DNA of 64,000 nucleotides from Parvularculaceae bacterium (GTDB lineage Bacteria > Pseudomonadota > Alphaproteobacteria > Caulobacterales > Parvularculaceae), in the NCBI GenBank assembly GCA_046756245.1, contig JBHHVZ010000002.1:8256-72255 (forward strand), written 5' to 3'. Shown here piece after piece: positions 3,481 through 39,885 of the stretch (within the stretch, counting starts at the first letter, position 1; the number at the start of each line of letters is the position of its first letter). The position numbers and the translations under genes are program-made. The notes under the pieces were generated by a model, which did not search any database, was not told the origin of the DNA, and saw nothing but the letters and a program-made list of their open reading frames with translations.

Positions 3481-4506
3481 CTATTTCAACAGCCGCGAGA
3501 CCACTTCCGCCGTATAGTCGACGATCGGGATGACCCGGGCGTAATTGAGTCGCGTCGGGCCGATCACGCCCAGCACCCCAACGACCTGCGTGTTCTGGTC
3601 GCGATAGGGCGCAACGATCACCGACGAGCCGGACAGCGAAAAGAGCCGGTTTTCCGAACCGATGAAGATTCTGACTCCTTCGCCCTCCTTGGCGGCGCCC
3701 AGCAGATCGATGAGCTCCTGCTTGCGCTCGAGATCGTCAAACAGCATCCGCACGCGCTCGATGTCCTGCGCGGCGGCGGCGTCAAGCAGATGGCCGCGCC
3801 CGCGCACGATAAGCGAGGCCGTATCGCCGCCCGAAATATCAGCCACGCCTTCGCGTACGAGCCTGGCGGTGAGGGCGTCGACCTCGGCCCTGTTCGATTC
3901 AAGCTCGCGCAGAATATCGGCCCGGGCCTCGTTTAATGTGCGTCCGCGCAGGCGGGCGTTGAGATAGTTTCCCGCCGAAATGAGCGACGACGGCGGCAGT
4001 CCCTTCGGGGTTCGCATGACGCGGTTTTCCACCCGTCCGTCCTCGAACACCATGATGACAAGCGCCTGGCCGGGCCCGCTGGCGACGAATTCGATATGCC
4101 TGAGCGGCGCCTCGCTTTTCTGGGCGACCACAAGGCCGGCGCTTTGCGTCAGGCCCGAAAGCTTGACGGCGACGTCTTCCAACACCGTGCCGATATCGTT
4201 CGAGGCGCGGTCTTCGATTGCATGACGTTCGTCTTCCGACAGTTCGCCGACCTGCAGCAGGCTGTCGACGAACAGGCGAAGCCCGAGCTCCGTCGGCATC
4301 CGCCCCGAAGACACATGCGGCGCGTAAAGCAGGCCGAGATCGGTGAGATCGGCCATAACATTGCGCACCGAAGCCGGGGAAAGCCTGATTTTTCCCTCGT
4401 GGCTCAACGTGCGCGAGCCGACCGGTTCGCCGGTTTCGAGATAGGTTTCCACCAGCTGGCGAAAAATTTCGCGCGATCGCTGGTCGATTTCATCAAGAAC
4501 GGTCAT
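3481..4506 (-). CDS. hrcA: Heat-inducible transcription repressor HrcA
   Basis: N-terminal winged helix (LDEIDQRSREIFRQLVETYLETGEPVGSRTLS) and the full-length HrcA pattern. Start trimmed to ATG 4506. Confidence 0.92.
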   Translation of the reverse strand: MTVLDEIDQRSREIFRQLVETYLETGEPVGSRTLSHEGKIRLSPASVRNVMADLTDLGLLYAPHVSSGRMPTELGLRLFVDSLLQVGELSEDERHAIEDRASNDIGTVLEDVAVKLSGLTQSAGLVVAQKSEAPLRHIEFVASGPGQALVIMVFEDGRVENRVMRTPKGLPPSSLISAGNYLNARLRGRTLNEARADILRELESNRAEVDALTARLVREGVADISGGDTASLIVRGRGHLLDAAAAQDIERVRMLFDDLERKQELIDLLGAAKEGEGVRIFIGSENRLFSLSGSSVIVAPYRDQNTQVVGVLGVIGPTRLNYARVIPIVDYTAEVVSRLLK

Positions 4507-4648
4507 GGCGCTCGGGCCCTGTTTTCGGCCATTTGTTATGGAGAATCCTAATTTAGGCGCCTCGCTGCAATCGTCCAAGCCGCCGCGCTCGACAACACGC
4601 CGTCATGAAGGTTAGGAAGCCGGCGCCGCTTATACAGGAGAATCGCCC

Positions 4649-5365
4649 ATGCGCCCATCGGGTCGGGCCTTTAACGAACTCCGCGCCGTCAGCCTTGAGG
4701 CCGGCTGCGCGAAACACGCCGAAGGCTCCTGCCTCGTGAAATTCGGCGACACTCATGTCCTGTGCACAGCGAGCTGGGACGAAACCACGCCGCCATGGCT
4801 CAGGGGCGGCGGGCGCGGTTGGGTGACGGCGGAATACGGCATGCTGCCGCGCGCGACCGGCGAGCGCATGCGCCGCGAAGCGAAATCCGGCCAGTCCGGC
4901 CGCACCCAGGAAATCCAGCGCTTGATCGGGCGGAGTTTGCGCGCTGTCGTCGACATGAAAGCGCTCGGAGAACGCCAGATTCTCATTGACTGCGACGTCA
5001 TCCAGGCCGACGGCGGCACCCGAACCGCGGCGATCACCGGCGCCTGGGTTGCGCTCGATCAGTGCTGCCGCTGGGCGGTCGAGAACGGCGTTCTCAAAGA
5101 GAGCCCGGTGCGCGACAGCGTCGCCGCCATATCCTGCGGCCTTGTGAACGGCGCGCCGTGTCTCGATCTCGATTACGAAGAAGACTCGACCGCCCAGGCC
5201 GACGCCAATTTCGTCCTGACCGGTTCGGGCGGTCTGGTTGAAATTCAGGGAACGGCGGAAGGCGATCCGTTTTCGGAAGACCAGTTTCTGGCTTTGCTGT
5301 CGCTTGCAAAGGAAGGCTGTGAGAAACTCGCCGAGACCCAGCGCAATCCGACCAAAAAGGACTAG
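4649..5365 (+). CDS. rph: Ribonuclease PH
   Basis: [40 protein letters not shown]. Divergent from hrcA, as in many alphaproteobacteria. Confidence 0.93.
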
Positions 5366-6047: not shown

Positions 6048-6186
6048 TTCCGCGGCCAGCACTCTCCAGAATATGAAGAATCGCCCGAAGAATTGAACGC
6101 GGCGCCGTCTTGGTTTTGTTAATCGACGCGCGGTAACGTTCGAGGCTCCGGCGGTTGCAGCGCAGCGCCGACGGCGGGAACAATGT

Positions 6187-7095
6187 ATGGAGCCGCAAAA
6201 GCCCGAAAGCCTGGTTGACGGATGGCCGGCGCGCCTGCCGGAAGACGCGGGCAAGAACAAGCATATCGTCGACATTCTGATCGAAGAACGCGCCGAGCAT
6301 CTTTTGCAATCGCCGCTTTGGCCAGTTTACAAGATATTTCTCTATCCCCTGCTTCGTTATGGCCCGGCGGTTCGAATGGCCGACACGGTCGCCCGCCTGT
6401 CTGCTCGCGAAGGGTTCGACTACATAAGCGATTTGCTGCGATTGAAAGTAAACGTCGAGGGCCGTGAAAACATCCCGGCGGAAGGGCGCGTGCTGATCGC
6501 CTCGACCCACCCGACCGGCATCGCCGACGGCGTTGCGATGTACGACGCGCTCAAGGAGCGCCGTCCTGACGTCATCTTTTTCGCCAATCGCGACGCGCTG
6601 CGCGCTGCGCCGCAGCTCAAGGAGCTTACTATCCCCGTCGAATGGGTCGAAGCCAAGCGAACGCCGGCGAAATCGCGCGAAACGCTGGCCGGCGTGATCG
6701 AAGCCTTCAGGGACGAGCGTTGCATCGTCCTTTTCCCTTCCGGCCGACTCGCATTCATGAATGACGAAAAGGTCCTCACCGAACAGGACTGGCAGCCCTC
6801 GGTTGCGATATTCGCGCGGAAATATGATGCGCCGCTCGTTCCCGCCCGAGTGCAAGCGCGAAATTCCTGGCTTTATTACTGGTTTTGGCGTTTAAACACC
6901 GAACTTCGCGACATAACGCTGTTCAACGAGCTGTTGAACAAGCAGGGAAAGCTCTACCGCATTCTATTTGGCGAAGTTATTCCCTCTACGGACCTTAAAG
7001 GCGATCCGGCGACTGTGACGAAAGCGCTCCAGATTTACGCCGAACACGGCCTCGCCGCCGGCCTGTCGTGGCGCAACCCGGAAATGCAGGACTGA
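6187..7095 (+). CDS. PlsC-family (lysophospholipid/glycerolipid) acyltransferase
   Basis: Acyltransferase block IASTHPTGIADG (H-x4-D type), FFANRD and VLFPSGR. Confidence 0.75.
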   Translation: MEPQKPESLVDGWPARLPEDAGKNKHIVDILIEERAEHLLQSPLWPVYKIFLYPLLRYGPAVRMADTVARLSAREGFDYISDLLRLKVNVEGRENIPAEGRVLIASTHPTGIADGVAMYDALKERRPDVIFFANRDALRAAPQLKELTIPVEWVEAKRTPAKSRETLAGVIEAFRDERCIVLFPSGRLAFMNDEKVLTEQDWQPSVAIFARKYDAPLVPARVQARNSWLYYWFWRLNTELRDITLFNELLNKQGKLYRILFGEVIPSTDLKGDPATVTKALQIYAEHGLAAGLSWRNPEMQD

Positions 7096-37205: not shown

Positions 37206-37280
37206 GCGGGCGTAGCTCAGGGGTAGAGCGCAACCTTGCCAAGGTTGAAGTCGTGAGTTCGAATCTCATCGCCCGCTCCA
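37206..37280 (+). tRNA. tRNA-Gly (anticodon GCC), CCA encoded
   Basis: Acceptor stem GCGGGCG/CGCCCGC, D-loop AGCTCAGGGGTAGAGC, anticodon stem-loop CAACC-TTGCCAA-GGTTG, T-arm GTGAGTTCGAATCTCAT. Confidence 0.95.
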
Positions 37281-37307: not shown

Positions 37308-37596
37308 GCGGGGATAGTTATCCGACCCTTTTGGGGCGGTCTTATGCTGGCGGGATGAATGTTTCCGCCCCATTTGATTGCGCTTTCGGGCGCATCGCGG
37401 CCAGCCGCTGCTCAACGCGCTTCGGCCCGCGCCTCAAGGCGCGAGACCGGAGGGCGCGCGTTCCCCCGATGTTCGAAAATGGACAAAATGGACCCTTTGG
37501 CCCGGAACGCGGCAAAAATAGCGGGATTCAGAATTTTCGTTTTTGCGCGAAGGAGACAAAAGAGACCTTTTCGGCCGAACGCTTCGCAAACCGGCG
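37308..37596 (+). repeat. Copy A of a ~300-bp mosaic repeat (unclassified)
   Basis: Shares identical blocks with the reverse complement of 47687..47987. Examples: GGGATAGTTATCCGACCCTT, TTGCGCTTTCGGGCGCA, AAATGGACAAAATGGACCCTTTGGC, AGGAGACAAAAGAGACCTTTT. Confidence 0.8.
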
Positions 37597-37655
37597 CGCA
37601 ACATCGTATAAGCCCGCGCATGCCGGTGGAGTAAAATGCAAGGGGTAAACGAGCC

Positions 37656-37820
37656 ATGATTGAAATATCCATTCTTGTCGCCGGGGCCGGCGGGCGCATG
37701 GGCCGGGCGGTGATCACCGAGGTTCTCGCCGCCCGCGGCGCGACGCTGGCGGGCCGGTTCGAGCGACCGGGCAGCGATGCGGTCGGGGCCGCCAAGTTGG
37801 CTTTTACGGCGCGTCTATGA
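37656..37820 (+). pseudogene. dapB: Orphaned 5' fragment of dapB (first ~45 codons, then unrelated sequence and a stop)
   Basis: 37653..37791 is near-identical (3 mismatches by eye) to 39076..39214, the start of intact dapB. Reads MIEISILVAGAGGRMGRAVITEVLAARGATLAGRFERPGSDAVG, then diverges. Confidence 0.85.
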
Positions 37821-37956
37821 TCATAACTAAATTATTGAACTTAAAGGGATTTCCACCATTTTAAAAACCTATTTCGAAAATCGAATTCGAAAATCGAAAA
37901 TTAACGCCGGCAATAGCCCTCTGTTAAGTTATTGCAAATTATAACTTTTCCACTAA

Positions 37957-37968
37957 TTTCACGTGAAA
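37957..37968. promoter_or_regulatory. Perfect 12-bp palindrome TTTCACGTGAAA covering the putative GTG start of the nucleotidyltransferase-fold ORF
   Basis: Self-complementary by inspection. It is nested in a 9-bp inverted repeat, TTTTCCACT (37946-37954) / AGTGGAAAA (37978-37986). Confidence 0.4.
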
Positions 37969-39039
37969 CAGGCAGAAAGTGGAAAACGTTTGAATTTAAG
38001 CGAGTTATCAGAAGAGCAGCGGCGCCAGCTTATTGACGCGCAGCAGGTGTATGGGGCCTGGCGCGAGGCGGCGGATGAAAAGCGCCGACGGTTCACGGGC
38101 GGTGTGCGATGGGCGGCGCGTGGCGGGAAGGACTATCTCCTACGAAAGACCGGACAGTCGGAACGCTCGCTTGGCGCGCGCAACCCTGAAACGGAAAGGA
38201 CGTATGCGGCCTTTATCAGGGGTCGGTCGGAAAATCAGGAAAGGCTGAAAAGTCTAGCGCGCCGTCTAGATGAAATGGCGCCGGTCAACCGCGCTATGGG
38301 CCTCAGTCGAATGCCGGTTATCGCCGCGCGGGTGGTGCGACGACTCGATGAAAAGGGATTGGTCGGCGAACAGCTTATCATTGTAGGGACGAATGCGTTA
38401 TATGCGTATGAGGCGCTGGCCGGCGTCCGGGTCGAAAGCGGCCTTGTCGCAACGGGCGATCTCGACTTGCTTTACGATGCGCGCCGCCGATTGCGATTCG
38501 TCGTTCGTGATGAAATAAACAAGTCTGGACTGATCGGCCTGCTTAAGTCCGTGGATAGCTCCTTTGCTTCACGGTCGCGCGATTTTCGGGCGATAAACAA
38601 AGACGGATATCTTGTCGACCTTATCCGCCCTCAAGACCGTTGCGTTTTGATCGACGATGCGCCCGCGACGCTTTCGGAGAATCCGGAGGACATGGAAGGC
38701 GCGCCGATCGAGGGCCTCGCCTGGCTCGTCAACGCGCCGAAGGTTTATGCAATTGTGATCGACGCGCGCGGCTATCCGCTGCGCGTAGCGGCGGTCGACC
38801 CACGTGTCTTTGCGCTTCACAAGCTTTGGCTGTCAAAACGGGCAGACCGGAGCACGGTCAAGGCTCGTCGCGATTTCGAACAGGCGCGGATTGCTGCCGA
38901 GATCGCAAAGCAGTATTTGCGGTTGTCTTTTGACGAGCCGGATATAGCAGCCCTGCCTGCGACGTTGCGCGAGCAGGCAAATACGGTGTTCAATAGAAAA
39001 AAGAATGGGCGTGAAGACAGCGATGCGCCCGATTGGTGA
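37963..39039 (+). CDS. Pol-beta-superfamily nucleotidyltransferase-fold protein (solo; possibly toxin/defence-type)
   Basis: IIVGTNALYAYEA...VATGDLDLLYD...GYLVDLIRP fits the hG[GST]...DxD...D catalytic pattern. 358 aa, preceded by an AT-rich leader. GTG start with no clear SD. Confidence 0.7.
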   Translation: MKQAESGKRLNLSELSEEQRRQLIDAQQVYGAWREAADEKRRRFTGGVRWAARGGKDYLLRKTGQSERSLGARNPETERTYAAFIRGRSENQERLKSLARRLDEMAPVNRAMGLSRMPVIAARVVRRLDEKGLVGEQLIIVGTNALYAYEALAGVRVESGLVATGDLDLLYDARRRLRFVVRDEINKSGLIGLLKSVDSSFASRSRDFRAINKDGYLVDLIRPQDRCVLIDDAPATLSENPEDMEGAPIEGLAWLVNAPKVYAIVIDARGYPLRVAAVDPRVFALHKLWLSKRADRSTVKARRDFEQARIAAEIAKQYLRLSFDEPDIAALPATLREQANTVFNRKKNGREDSDAPDW

Positions 39040-39078
39040 AACCACTGAAATCGGCAATGCGAAAACGGCCCTGAAGCC

Positions 39079-39885
39079 ATGACTGAAATATCCATTCTTG
39101 TCGCCGGGGCCGGCGGGCGCATGGGCCGGGCGGTGATCACCGAGGTTCTCGCCGCCCGCGGCGCGACGCTGGCGGGCGGGTTCGAGCGACCGGGCAGCGA
39201 TGCGGTCGGCGCCGATCTCGGCCACCTGGTCGGGCTCGACCGGCTCGGCCTCGCCGTCGCCGACGCGCCGGACGAAGGGCTGAAACACGCTTCGGTCCTG
39301 ATCGATTTCACGACGCCGTCGGCCTCGCTGGACCATGCGCGGGCGTGCGCCGCCGCCGGGCGCGCCCATGTAATCGGCGCCACCGGGTTTTCGCCGGCCG
39401 AAGAAAAGGAAATCGCCGCCCTCGCCGAGAAAATCGCCATCGTCAAATCCGGCAACATGTCGCTCGGCGTTAACCTGTTGTCAGCGCTTGTGGAACAGGC
39501 GGCGGCGAAGCTCTCAGACGCCTATGACATTGAGATTTTGGATATTCATCACCGGATGAAAATCGACACGCCATCGGGAACCGCGCTGATGCTTGGAAAA
39601 GCGGCGGCGAAGGGACGCTGTGTCGATCTCGATAGACATTCTGTATACGAACGATATGGCCAGACTGGCGCGCGCAAAAAAGGCGACATAGGTTTTGCGG
39701 TTCTTCGCGGCGGCGGCGTCATCGGCGAACACGAAGTGCGCTTCGCCGGCGATCAGGAAGTCCTGACGCTTTCGCATTCGGCGCTTGACCGGCGGCTCTT
39801 CGCCAAAGGCGCCGTCGCAGCGGCGAAATGGACGATCGGACAGCCGTCCGGGCTTTACTCCATGCGCGACGTGCTGGGCCTTTGA
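39079..39885 (+). CDS. dapB: 4-hydroxy-tetrahydrodipicolinate reductase
   Basis: VAGAGGRMGR NAD loop, EILDIHHRMKIDTPSGTAL, full length 268 aa. Confidence 0.93.
   Translation: MTEISILVAGAGGRMGRAVITEVLAARGATLAGGFERPGSDAVGADLGHLVGLDRLGLAVADAPDEGLKHASVLIDFTTPSASLDHARACAAAGRAHVIGATGFSPAEEKEIAALAEKIAIVKSGNMSLGVNLLSALVEQAAAKLSDAYDIEILDIHHRMKIDTPSGTALMLGKAAAKGRCVDLDRHSVYERYGQTGARKKGDIGFAVLRGGGVIGEHEVRFAGDQEVLTLSHSALDRRLFAKGAVAAAKWTIGQPSGLYSMRDVLGL

Follow-up and report, generated by a model that had tools for sequence, protein, structure and literature searches.

Why does the start of dapB, an essential gene needed for lysine and cell-wall synthesis, occur twice in a Parvularculaceae bacterium, and how did another gene come to lie between the two copies? 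We analyzed this locus within a 64,000-nt stretch of contig JBHHVZ010000002.1 (assembly GCA_046756245.1; the window, in whose coordinates positions are given), which had been described before in a short note made by a model from the sequence alone (the earlier note). In the window, a 1,283-bp insert carrying a single nucleotidyltransferase-fold gene of the GSU2403/PF12281 family separates an intact dapB from its native leader and from a truncated copy of its own 5' end, and the same geometry recurs at other loci of this family.

A repeat search of the window returned two direct repeats at 37652-37791 and 39075-39214, 140 nt long, 98% identical and spaced 1,423 nt apart; a repeat of this length and identity within 64 kb is not a product of chance. 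Each copy spans dapB from position -4, 4 nt before the ATG, to position +136, and direct comparison revealed three differences, at 37660/39083 (T/C), 37755/39178 (C/G) and 37787/39210 (G/C). The earlier note had likewise counted three mismatches between near-identical copies beginning at the dapB start region, with start coordinates that were off by an immaterial single base. The edges of the repeat are sharp, the preceding 30 nt and the following 40 nt being unrelated between the copies, and a search for residual homology in the outer flanks gave scores no higher than those of shuffled sequences. The right, attR-like copy is fused to the remainder of the gene and runs into a complete dapB of 268 aa (39079-39885; TIGR00036, E 1e-78; DapB_N and DapB_C), which is the full-length gene the note had described. 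The left, attL-like copy forms an open reading frame (ORF) of 54 codons (37656-37820), 46 from dapB and 8 read from the insert, that matches DapB_N at profile positions 1-42 only (E 3.5e-8), in agreement with the dead 54-codon stub reported before. The native dapB leader (37567-37651), with a Shine-Dalgarno (SD)-like AAGGGG at 37640-37645, now lies upstream of this stub only. All of these features, like those of the insert, are on the plus strand unless stated otherwise.

The insert itself (37792-39074) consists of a leader, one gene and a 35-nt tail. The leader is AT-rich as the note had it, with 35% G+C over 37792-37992. Neither a second gene nor any further ORF with a family match, nor a partner, integrase or transposase, was found in the insert, and tblastn and hidden Markov model (HMM) searches with family-associated recombinases, which covered the 64 kb of host genome in the window and employed a small ad-hoc HMM, returned no recombinase; the absence of integrase, transposase and partner from the insert had also been noted earlier. 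An insertion sequence or transposon was considered and rejected, as there is no transposase, no inverted repeat joining both ends and no conserved 3' end, and the duplications measure 40-424 nt. A tRNA-Gly(GCC) gene is located at 37206-37280, and an island anchored in it was rejected as well, the tRNA 3' end having no second copy in the window.

Comparison with relatives, which the earlier note had suggested as a check, showed the interrupted state to be the unusual one. In the closest dapB relative (locus L083, 78% amino acid identity) the 85 nt upstream of the gene align to window positions 37567-37651, including an SD-like AAGG, and are followed by an uninterrupted dapB; the gene is also uninterrupted in L093 and L094 (69% identity). 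The synteny 3' of dapB (aspartic protease, FAD hydroxylase and P-II) is retained in L083 and L093. The L083 contig ends 85 nt upstream of dapB, which places the adjacency of tRNA-Gly and dapB outside its reach, and the collections searched contained no empty site from the same species, the next dapB relative being the one with 78% identity; the source genome is not a GTDB representative. Two of the mismatches can be polarised, Gly34 and a synonymous GGC, and at both the right copy has the state of the relative, while the stub encodes Arg (CGG) at position 34, a Gly in 8 of 8 relatives inspected. The stub is therefore the decaying copy of the two, and by its sequence it is a dead one in which decay has already begun. 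The composition of the insert differs from that of its surroundings in G+C content (54.7% vs 61.6% for the window), and the third-codon-position G+C (GC3) of its gene is 0.633 vs 0.755 +/- 0.028 for 45 host genes. Judged by these comparisons, the insert is derived, horizontally acquired and compositionally foreign.

The source sequence is a metagenome-assembled genome (MAG), and independent support for the arrangement was sought in other assemblies. The dapB product is 100% identical to MFQ5562055.1 of a Parvularculaceae MAG (80.9-kb contig) at NCBI, where the neighbouring accession MFQ5562054.1 is the gene of the insert, annotated there as 242 aa only; exact-protein look-ups of the dapB product, P0121 and the stub gave no matches. 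Logan assemblies of two other runs (SRR29324596 and SRR29324595) contain contigs spanning the passages from stub to insert and from insert to dapB start. These contigs equal window positions 37757-39209 (L001, SRR29324596) and 37757-39113 (L002) with one base differing at 37831 in each, and both junctions of the insert are thus reproduced. The two junctions to unique chromosomal sequence, from native leader to stub and from right repeat to the rest of dapB, are seen in the MAG assembly alone and have no independent support, which would fit an artefact in which an uninterrupted dapB and a separate 1,423-bp circle, or a second strain, were misthreaded into one contig. Such an artefact would also fit L001, which with 1,453 nt is 30 nt longer than the repeat spacing of 1,423 nt, has identical first and last 30 nt and continues through the 94-nt shared stretch at which L002 breaks. 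A closed cycle in a k=31 graph has an end overlap of just this kind, which either an excised circle or graph clean-up could have produced. L002, on the other hand, stops exactly 30 nt past the T/C mismatch, where a break is to be expected when the stub is present alongside the right copy. The recurrence of both insert junctions in two other runs, the side-by-side annotation of the cassette gene and dapB on the 80.9-kb contig and the reappearance of the architecture in unrelated assemblies, long-read MAGs included, all speak against misassembly, which we regard as very improbable. The integrated form is favoured over a circle plus an empty site; in the latter, the chromosomal dapB would have Arg in place of the invariant Gly34.

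What, then, does the cassette encode? Its longest ORF (37963-39039) starts at GTG 37963 and has 358 aa, as the earlier note had reported together with a Pol-beta signature, and comparison with homologues moves the likely start to TTG 37990, which shortens the product to 349 aa. The protein matches PF12281 (NTP_transf_8) with 187.6 bits (cut-off 26.3; E 3.8e-55) over residues 122-325, and several of its homologues bear the NCBI name GSU2403 family nucleotidyltransferase fold protein, the very family to which the note had likened the ORF; a separate NCBIfam model match for the protein was not obtained. The search recovered over 1,146 homologues of full length; those closest to the protein without being identical share 61-63% identity with it. 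Coverage of the query is 89-100% for the top 120, and family members measure about 346-360 aa including an N-terminal domain of about 115 aa, which the 242-aa NCBI call for MFQ5562054.1 leaves out. In an alignment of 30 sequences the mean column identity was 67% and the catalytic signature G[ST]...DxD was intact, with G142, D166 and D168 invariant and T143 present in at least 90% of the sequences. An AlphaFold (AF2) model (predicted local distance difference test, pLDDT, 85; predicted template modelling score, pTM, 0.83) consists of an N-terminal domain of helix, beta-meander and long helix (residues about 1-115), an alpha/beta core and a helical C-terminal part. The best fold match in the PDB was the nucleotidyltransferase-like structure 5uvd (E 1.1e-3; template modelling score 0.49 on the target), followed by weaker matches to CdnG (CD-NTase) and terminal uridylyltransferases (E > 0.04).

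The earlier note had further framed the gene as an MNT/AbiEii-like toxin or defence gene, and for this we found no support. The profile search it had called for matched the ORF to PF12281 and not to AbiEii or MNT: there was no AbiEii (DUF1814) or MNT Pfam match at E <= 1, PADLOC, including its AbiE models, reported 0 families, PHROG and NCBIfam gave no match, a sequence-profile match in the PDB was lacking and no MenT or AbiEii structure was among the top 50 fold matches. Clustering of the ORFs within +/-4 kb of 80 genome loci revealed no conserved partner gene; clusters that overlap the family gene itself were discarded as antisense ORFs, which are typical of GC-rich DNA. Members of the family come mainly from Alphaproteobacteria, with most loci vertically inherited within genera, and occur in 57 plasmid records, while phage records and IMG/VR contigs carrying them were not found. 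Cultured strains of Mesorhizobium, Methylobacterium, Phyllobacterium and Cereibacter carry members, in Cereibacter sphaeroides 2.4.1 on a plasmid, and a literature search on the family across 8 million papers returned one incidental mention, of a locus tag. At syntenic Mesorhizobium loci (L010-L023, L055) the nucleotidyltransferase genes share about 76-80% DNA identity vs about 90% for the downstream flank, and the gene either evolves faster than its surroundings there or has been exchanged between alleles. Genes of conflict type, namely NotI-type restriction-modification with Vsr, BrnT/BrnA and a PemK toxin, are encoded near the family members L088/L089 (1896-5892) and L175 (1-3408). Such genomic company suggests a selfish or conflict-type cargo.

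The arrangement at dapB is not confined to this locus. Direct repeats of at least 40 nt flank 4 of 70 genome loci and 4 of 48 metagenome loci of the family, compared with 0 of 235 and 0 of 49 displaced control positions, none of which had a repeat longer than 31 nt. At least three family insertions besides the one in the window are independent and have the same geometry of stub, cassette and intact gene end. The first (L016/L009/L110/L114) lies at the 3' end of an NTP-transferase gene, with a repeat of 41 nt in L016, a further 164 nt at 94% identity in L009 and an original length of at least 374 nt; the second (L175) at the 3' end of an SNF2 helicase gene, with a repeat of 424 nt at 91% identity; and the third (L075/L061) at the 3' end of an M20 peptidase gene, with a repeat of 69 nt at 87% identity. 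All four repeat-bounded inserts, at 1.28-1.5 kb, hold the cassette only. Their orientation is constant, with the intact gene on the 3' side of the nucleotidyltransferase gene and the fragment on its 5' side, and the same holds for a fifth locus, the tRNA island L100 described below. The outer repeat boundary falls close to the gene end at -4 nt from the ATG in the window, +1 nt after the stop codon in L016, about +2 to +10 nt from the stop codon in L175, where identity collapses, and +3 nt after tRNA-Met in L100, while in L075/L061 it lies about 26 nt inside the coding sequence (CDS) and not at its end. A boundary just outside the CDS would be expected if an element carried only the gene end that is maintained by selection.

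Repeats at L022, L119 and L098 were not counted as events, as they proved to be old paralogues or the end of a second recombinase gene, and a six-frame protein search for decayed stubs was uninformative, GC-rich low-complexity frames giving matches in 144 of 263 controls. Homology beyond the repeat did not exceed that of shuffles in L016 and L175, the latter showing a weak in-register match of 22/33, and no conserved 3' terminal element, attC-like site or terminal inverted repeats were found. The two L175 copies (4395-4817 and 6159-6582) are mosaic, their ends differing by about 15% vs 3.8% in the middle (Fisher p = 4e-5), with 28 mismatches in the outer 184 nt vs 9 in the central 240 nt. This mosaic is a hint that the stub and the intact SNF2 3' end have undergone gene conversion. 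The ratio of nonsynonymous to synonymous differences per site (pN/pS) in the L175 repeat is 0.30 and similarity falls sharply just outside the CDS, a form of divergence more in keeping with a gene end that an element has carried for long under selection than with a fresh duplication.

Several family members are associated with tyrosine recombinases. The clearest case is L100 (1062-3343), a 2.2-kb island between 40-nt repeats of a tRNA-Met 3' end that contains a degenerate, frameshifted small tyrosine recombinase and the nucleotidyltransferase gene as its sole cargo. In L098 and L105 a small recombinase of the L100 type is directly upstream of the family gene, L098 encoding a PIN_12 gene as well. 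The closest homologue of the cassette protein (P0003, 63% identity) is encoded 505 nt downstream of a 426-aa Phage_integrase gene, beside tig-clpP-clpX, while L084 is adjoined by a Phd/VapC pair and a tyrosine recombinase, L004 is flanked by repeats of a tRNA fragment and accompanied by integrase remains, and L052 is part of a 3.9-kb island between 399-nt repeats with a Fic gene and an integrase arm-domain fragment.

On this evidence we tentatively rank first, with a little less than even confidence, an integrative cassette in the style of e14 in icd that carried a replacement gene end and whose recombinase was lost or supplied in trans. A small integrative element with the nucleotidyltransferase gene as sole cargo would have been inserted by a site-specific tyrosine recombinase, its attachment site including a replacement dapB 5' end and the crossover occurring close to dapB +136, where the repeat has its inner boundary; the gene for the recombinase would then have been cleanly lost, or have acted in trans, so that an orphan cassette flanked by att-like sequences was left. 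This origin is placed first because the repeat begins within the gene and extends barely past its end, with the intact gene always on the same side, and because the L175 divergence fits a long-carried, selected gene end. The earlier note had proposed an integrative cassette with a replacement end, a proposal strengthened by the family parallels (the tRNA-Met island, the nearby integrases and the three other genes), whereas the window copy itself has neither a recombinase nor a remnant of one, and its arrangement would be identical after one-sided homologous recombination.

A number of observations weigh against this ranking. No recombinase or remnant lies between the repeats in the window, L016/L009, L175 or L075, and L100, with similarly diverged repeats, still shows a decayed recombinase; to assume a clean loss four times over is unparsimonious, and in the 64 kb of host genome covered no recombinase that might act in trans was seen. 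A candidate relic at 37792-37820 was rejected, its likeness to the 3' end of the small recombinase being a 7-mer with 2-3 shared residues, which is not significant. Two dapB copies that are 98% identical are also more alike than an element-borne end would lead one to expect, except where the element originated in the same species or homogenisation took place between the copies. Repeats of 140-424 nt exceed typical att blocks, the sites of dusA islands measuring 21 nt (PMC4482086), and every cassette lineage would require its own target specificity.

The main rival, and a serious one, is an insertion-duplication without any recombinase, which we consider possible, if less probable than the e14-style origin. 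DNA of a close relative, with the cassette next to a dapB 5' fragment, would have arrived via a gene-transfer agent, transformation or conjugation and have been joined to the chromosome either by a Campbell-type single crossover of a circle or by homology-facilitated illegitimate recombination, the shared segment being duplicated either way. Four minimal cassettes without a recombinase would then need no special explanation, repeats of 140-424 nt are good RecA substrates, the 98% identity fits a conspecific donor, and an illegitimate join would account for the variable sequence that separates the repeat from the conserved core of the cassette. The concentration of the family in Alphaproteobacteria, in which gene-transfer agents are common, points in the same direction. 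What this route leaves unexplained is the first insertion, as the donor would already have had the cassette abutting the dapB start codon. Nor does it account for the constant orientation, or for four independent events whose outer boundary lies 1-10 nt from the end of a CDS or tRNA, and the L175 ends, about 15% diverged with a longest identical run of 67 nt, would be a poor substrate if the divergence predates integration. A precedent is the homology-facilitated illegitimate recombination proposed for the orphan arrays of type VI secretion system (T6SS)/Rhs loci (PMC5361080).

Non-syntenic cassette copies of 84-88% identity share only about 70-170 nt of leader and the gene, which raises the question of whether the cassette itself is mobile, its own two-domain product or a dedicated host pathway inserting it at gene ends with long target duplications of variable length. 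Four independent repeat-bounded inserts that hold this unit alone, the lack of a conserved partner gene and conserved inverted repeats in the leader, which may be binding sites for the cassette protein, would suit such a process. We consider it quite unlikely, since the fold has no known recombinase, transposase or HUH chemistry, the inverted repeats are found at one end only with nothing conserved after the stop codon, most family loci are vertically inherited, several copies are plainly passengers of integrase-bearing islands, and a staggered-cut duplication leaves the boundary at the CDS edge unexplained. Somewhat less unlikely, though still improbable, is the broader proposition that GSU2403/PF12281 cassettes of about 1.1-1.5 kb, each a leader with a palindromic operator and one gene, form an unrecognised class of minimal mobile gene cassette that settles at housekeeping gene ends, brings or generates a replacement for the end and has no recombinase of its own. 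Such a class would move either by hijacking unrelated tyrosine recombinases in trans or by an activity of its own two-domain protein.

How is the cassette gene controlled? Upstream of family genes a conserved order was observed, consisting of TTGAAA or TTGCAA, 16 nt, TTTTCCACTA, about 23-24 nt, AGTGGAAAA, 3-5 nt and the start codon. In the window, the corresponding promoter-like region is TTGCAA-16 nt-TAATTT (37932-37959), a putative promoter of conserved arrangement that a consensus scan did not flag, and it is overlapped by an inverted repeat (37946-37986, without strand) of TTTTCCACT (37946-54) and AGTGGAAAA (37978-86) with a 23-nt spacer, a putative operator or a hairpin sequestering the ribosome-binding site (RBS). 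These two 9-mers, the arms of TTTTCCACT-N23-AGTGGAAAA, are the only exact copies of the 9-mer in the 64 kb, and they place the start of the cassette gene at TTG 37990. N-terminal extensions beginning with SGK in database homologues correspond to the translated right operator arm. Near the gene start, 124 of 151 family loci have a perfect 8-nt inverted repeat whose arms are 20-30 nt apart (modal spacer 24 nt), vs 20 of 391 control regions. Its half-sites co-vary by subfamily, the pairs including TTCCCAC/GTGGGAA, TTATCCC/GGGATAA, TTATCCAT/ATGGATAA and TTTGCCAA/TTGGCAAA. In the window, the inverted repeat overlaps the -10-like and SD-like positions, and its RNA fold z is -2.0, with fold z values from -1 to -3.9 overall.

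Many family loci have a second operator-like unit further upstream. The one in the window (37849-37898) is degenerate, aligns with the leaders of L098, L100, L105, L088 and L092, and comprises a half-site ATTTCCACC (37849-57) and the tandem 13-mer TTCGAAAATCGAA x2 (37873-98), in place of which other loci have GTGGAAAA, the right arm of the upstream operator. A 15-mer resembling the 13-mer, TTCGAAAATGGACAA, is found in the native spacer between tRNA and dapB (37472-37486), and a perfect tandem duplication of a 26-mer with the TTTTCCACT half-site precedes another family member (L176, 4789-4840). The sole consensus promoter-like match in the region (37967-37938, minus strand, TTCACG-18-TATAAT, 10/12) points left out of the operator loop, and the count of such matches is not above that of shuffles. 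An Rfam search of the leader region gave nothing below E 0.9 except the tRNA.

From the placement and co-variation of the half-sites we infer that the cassette protein probably represses its own gene through them, as they cover the -10-like and SD-like positions and vary with the protein subfamily, and autoregulation is the simplest reading because no neighbour gene is conserved; the alternative is the RBS-sequestering hairpin. Of the new findings, the operator-like repeat across the family and the geometry that recurs at other loci are the most useful, and the former offers a concrete experimental handle on a little-studied family.

For dapB, the insertion means that the gene has been cut from its own promoter and RBS. 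The intact copy is preceded by the 35-nt tail of the insert, which contains no SD-like motif. No convincing terminator was found between the native leader and dapB, the one same-strand terminator-like match in the insert being located inside the cassette ORF and the count of matches lying below the shuffle mean. Expression of dapB by read-through from the old promoter across stub and cassette, from a cassette promoter, or by both is considered likely because of this lack of a terminator, and the earlier note had likewise inferred transcription from within the insert or through it. The transcription of dapB would in either case depend on a foreign cassette, and DNA acquired horizontally can in this way rewire the expression of a core gene without destroying it. 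If the recurrent pattern without recombinase reflects a real mechanism of mobility, it would be a new entry among the known mobile elements and would explain the spread of an uncharacterised family of more than 1,000 members through Alphaproteobacteria.

Set against known systems, the cassette gene resembles AbiEii/MenT (DUF1814) and MNT nucleotidyltransferases in its Pol-beta-type G[ST]...DxD signature and in being accessory and associated with islands and plasmids, and AbiE operons are autoregulated through inverted repeats. It differs from them in having no sequence or profile match, no partner and an additional conserved N-terminal domain of about 115 aa. The architecture as a whole differs from known gene-end-replacing integrative elements in being minimal and without a recombinase.

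The closest structural parallel is e14 (and phage 21) in E. coli icd, where the displaced fragment icdC is left as a pseudogene (PMC13626634). There, as in the window, an element lies inside a housekeeping gene that remains whole because its end occurs twice, the terminal fragment is displaced to the far side of the element and left as a pseudogene, and the copies differ by few, mostly conservative changes (PMC13626634, citing Hill et al. 1989). The prophage e14 has 15 kb, encodes its own integrase and targets a 3' end; the window insert is limited to 1.28 kb and a single gene and lacks a recombinase, and it is the 5' end that is duplicated there, so that dapB also loses its promoter and SD. 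The dusA islands do integrate at the 5' end of a housekeeping gene and replace it, with imperfect direct repeats at their flanks (PMC4482086). In contrast to the window insert, they span tens of kb, always have a dedicated integrase beside the junction and have att repeats of about 21 bp, and they use one fixed target whereas GSU2403 cassettes are found at many different genes. Among tRNA mini-islands and their att-flanked derivatives without a recombinase, which resemble cis-mobilizable elements (CIMEs), L100 is a canonical example with the same cargo, and the window has the same order of parts minus the recombinase, while differing in its protein-coding 5'-end target, its 140-nt repeat and the lack of an identified helper element. 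Finally, the Rhs/T6SS orphan arrays share with the window the homology-anchored arrival of DNA, in which the resident part is pushed aside but survives as a fragment (PMC5361080); these arrays replace a polymorphic toxin tip in one type of locus, whereas here an unrelated gene is placed at unrelated housekeeping genes.

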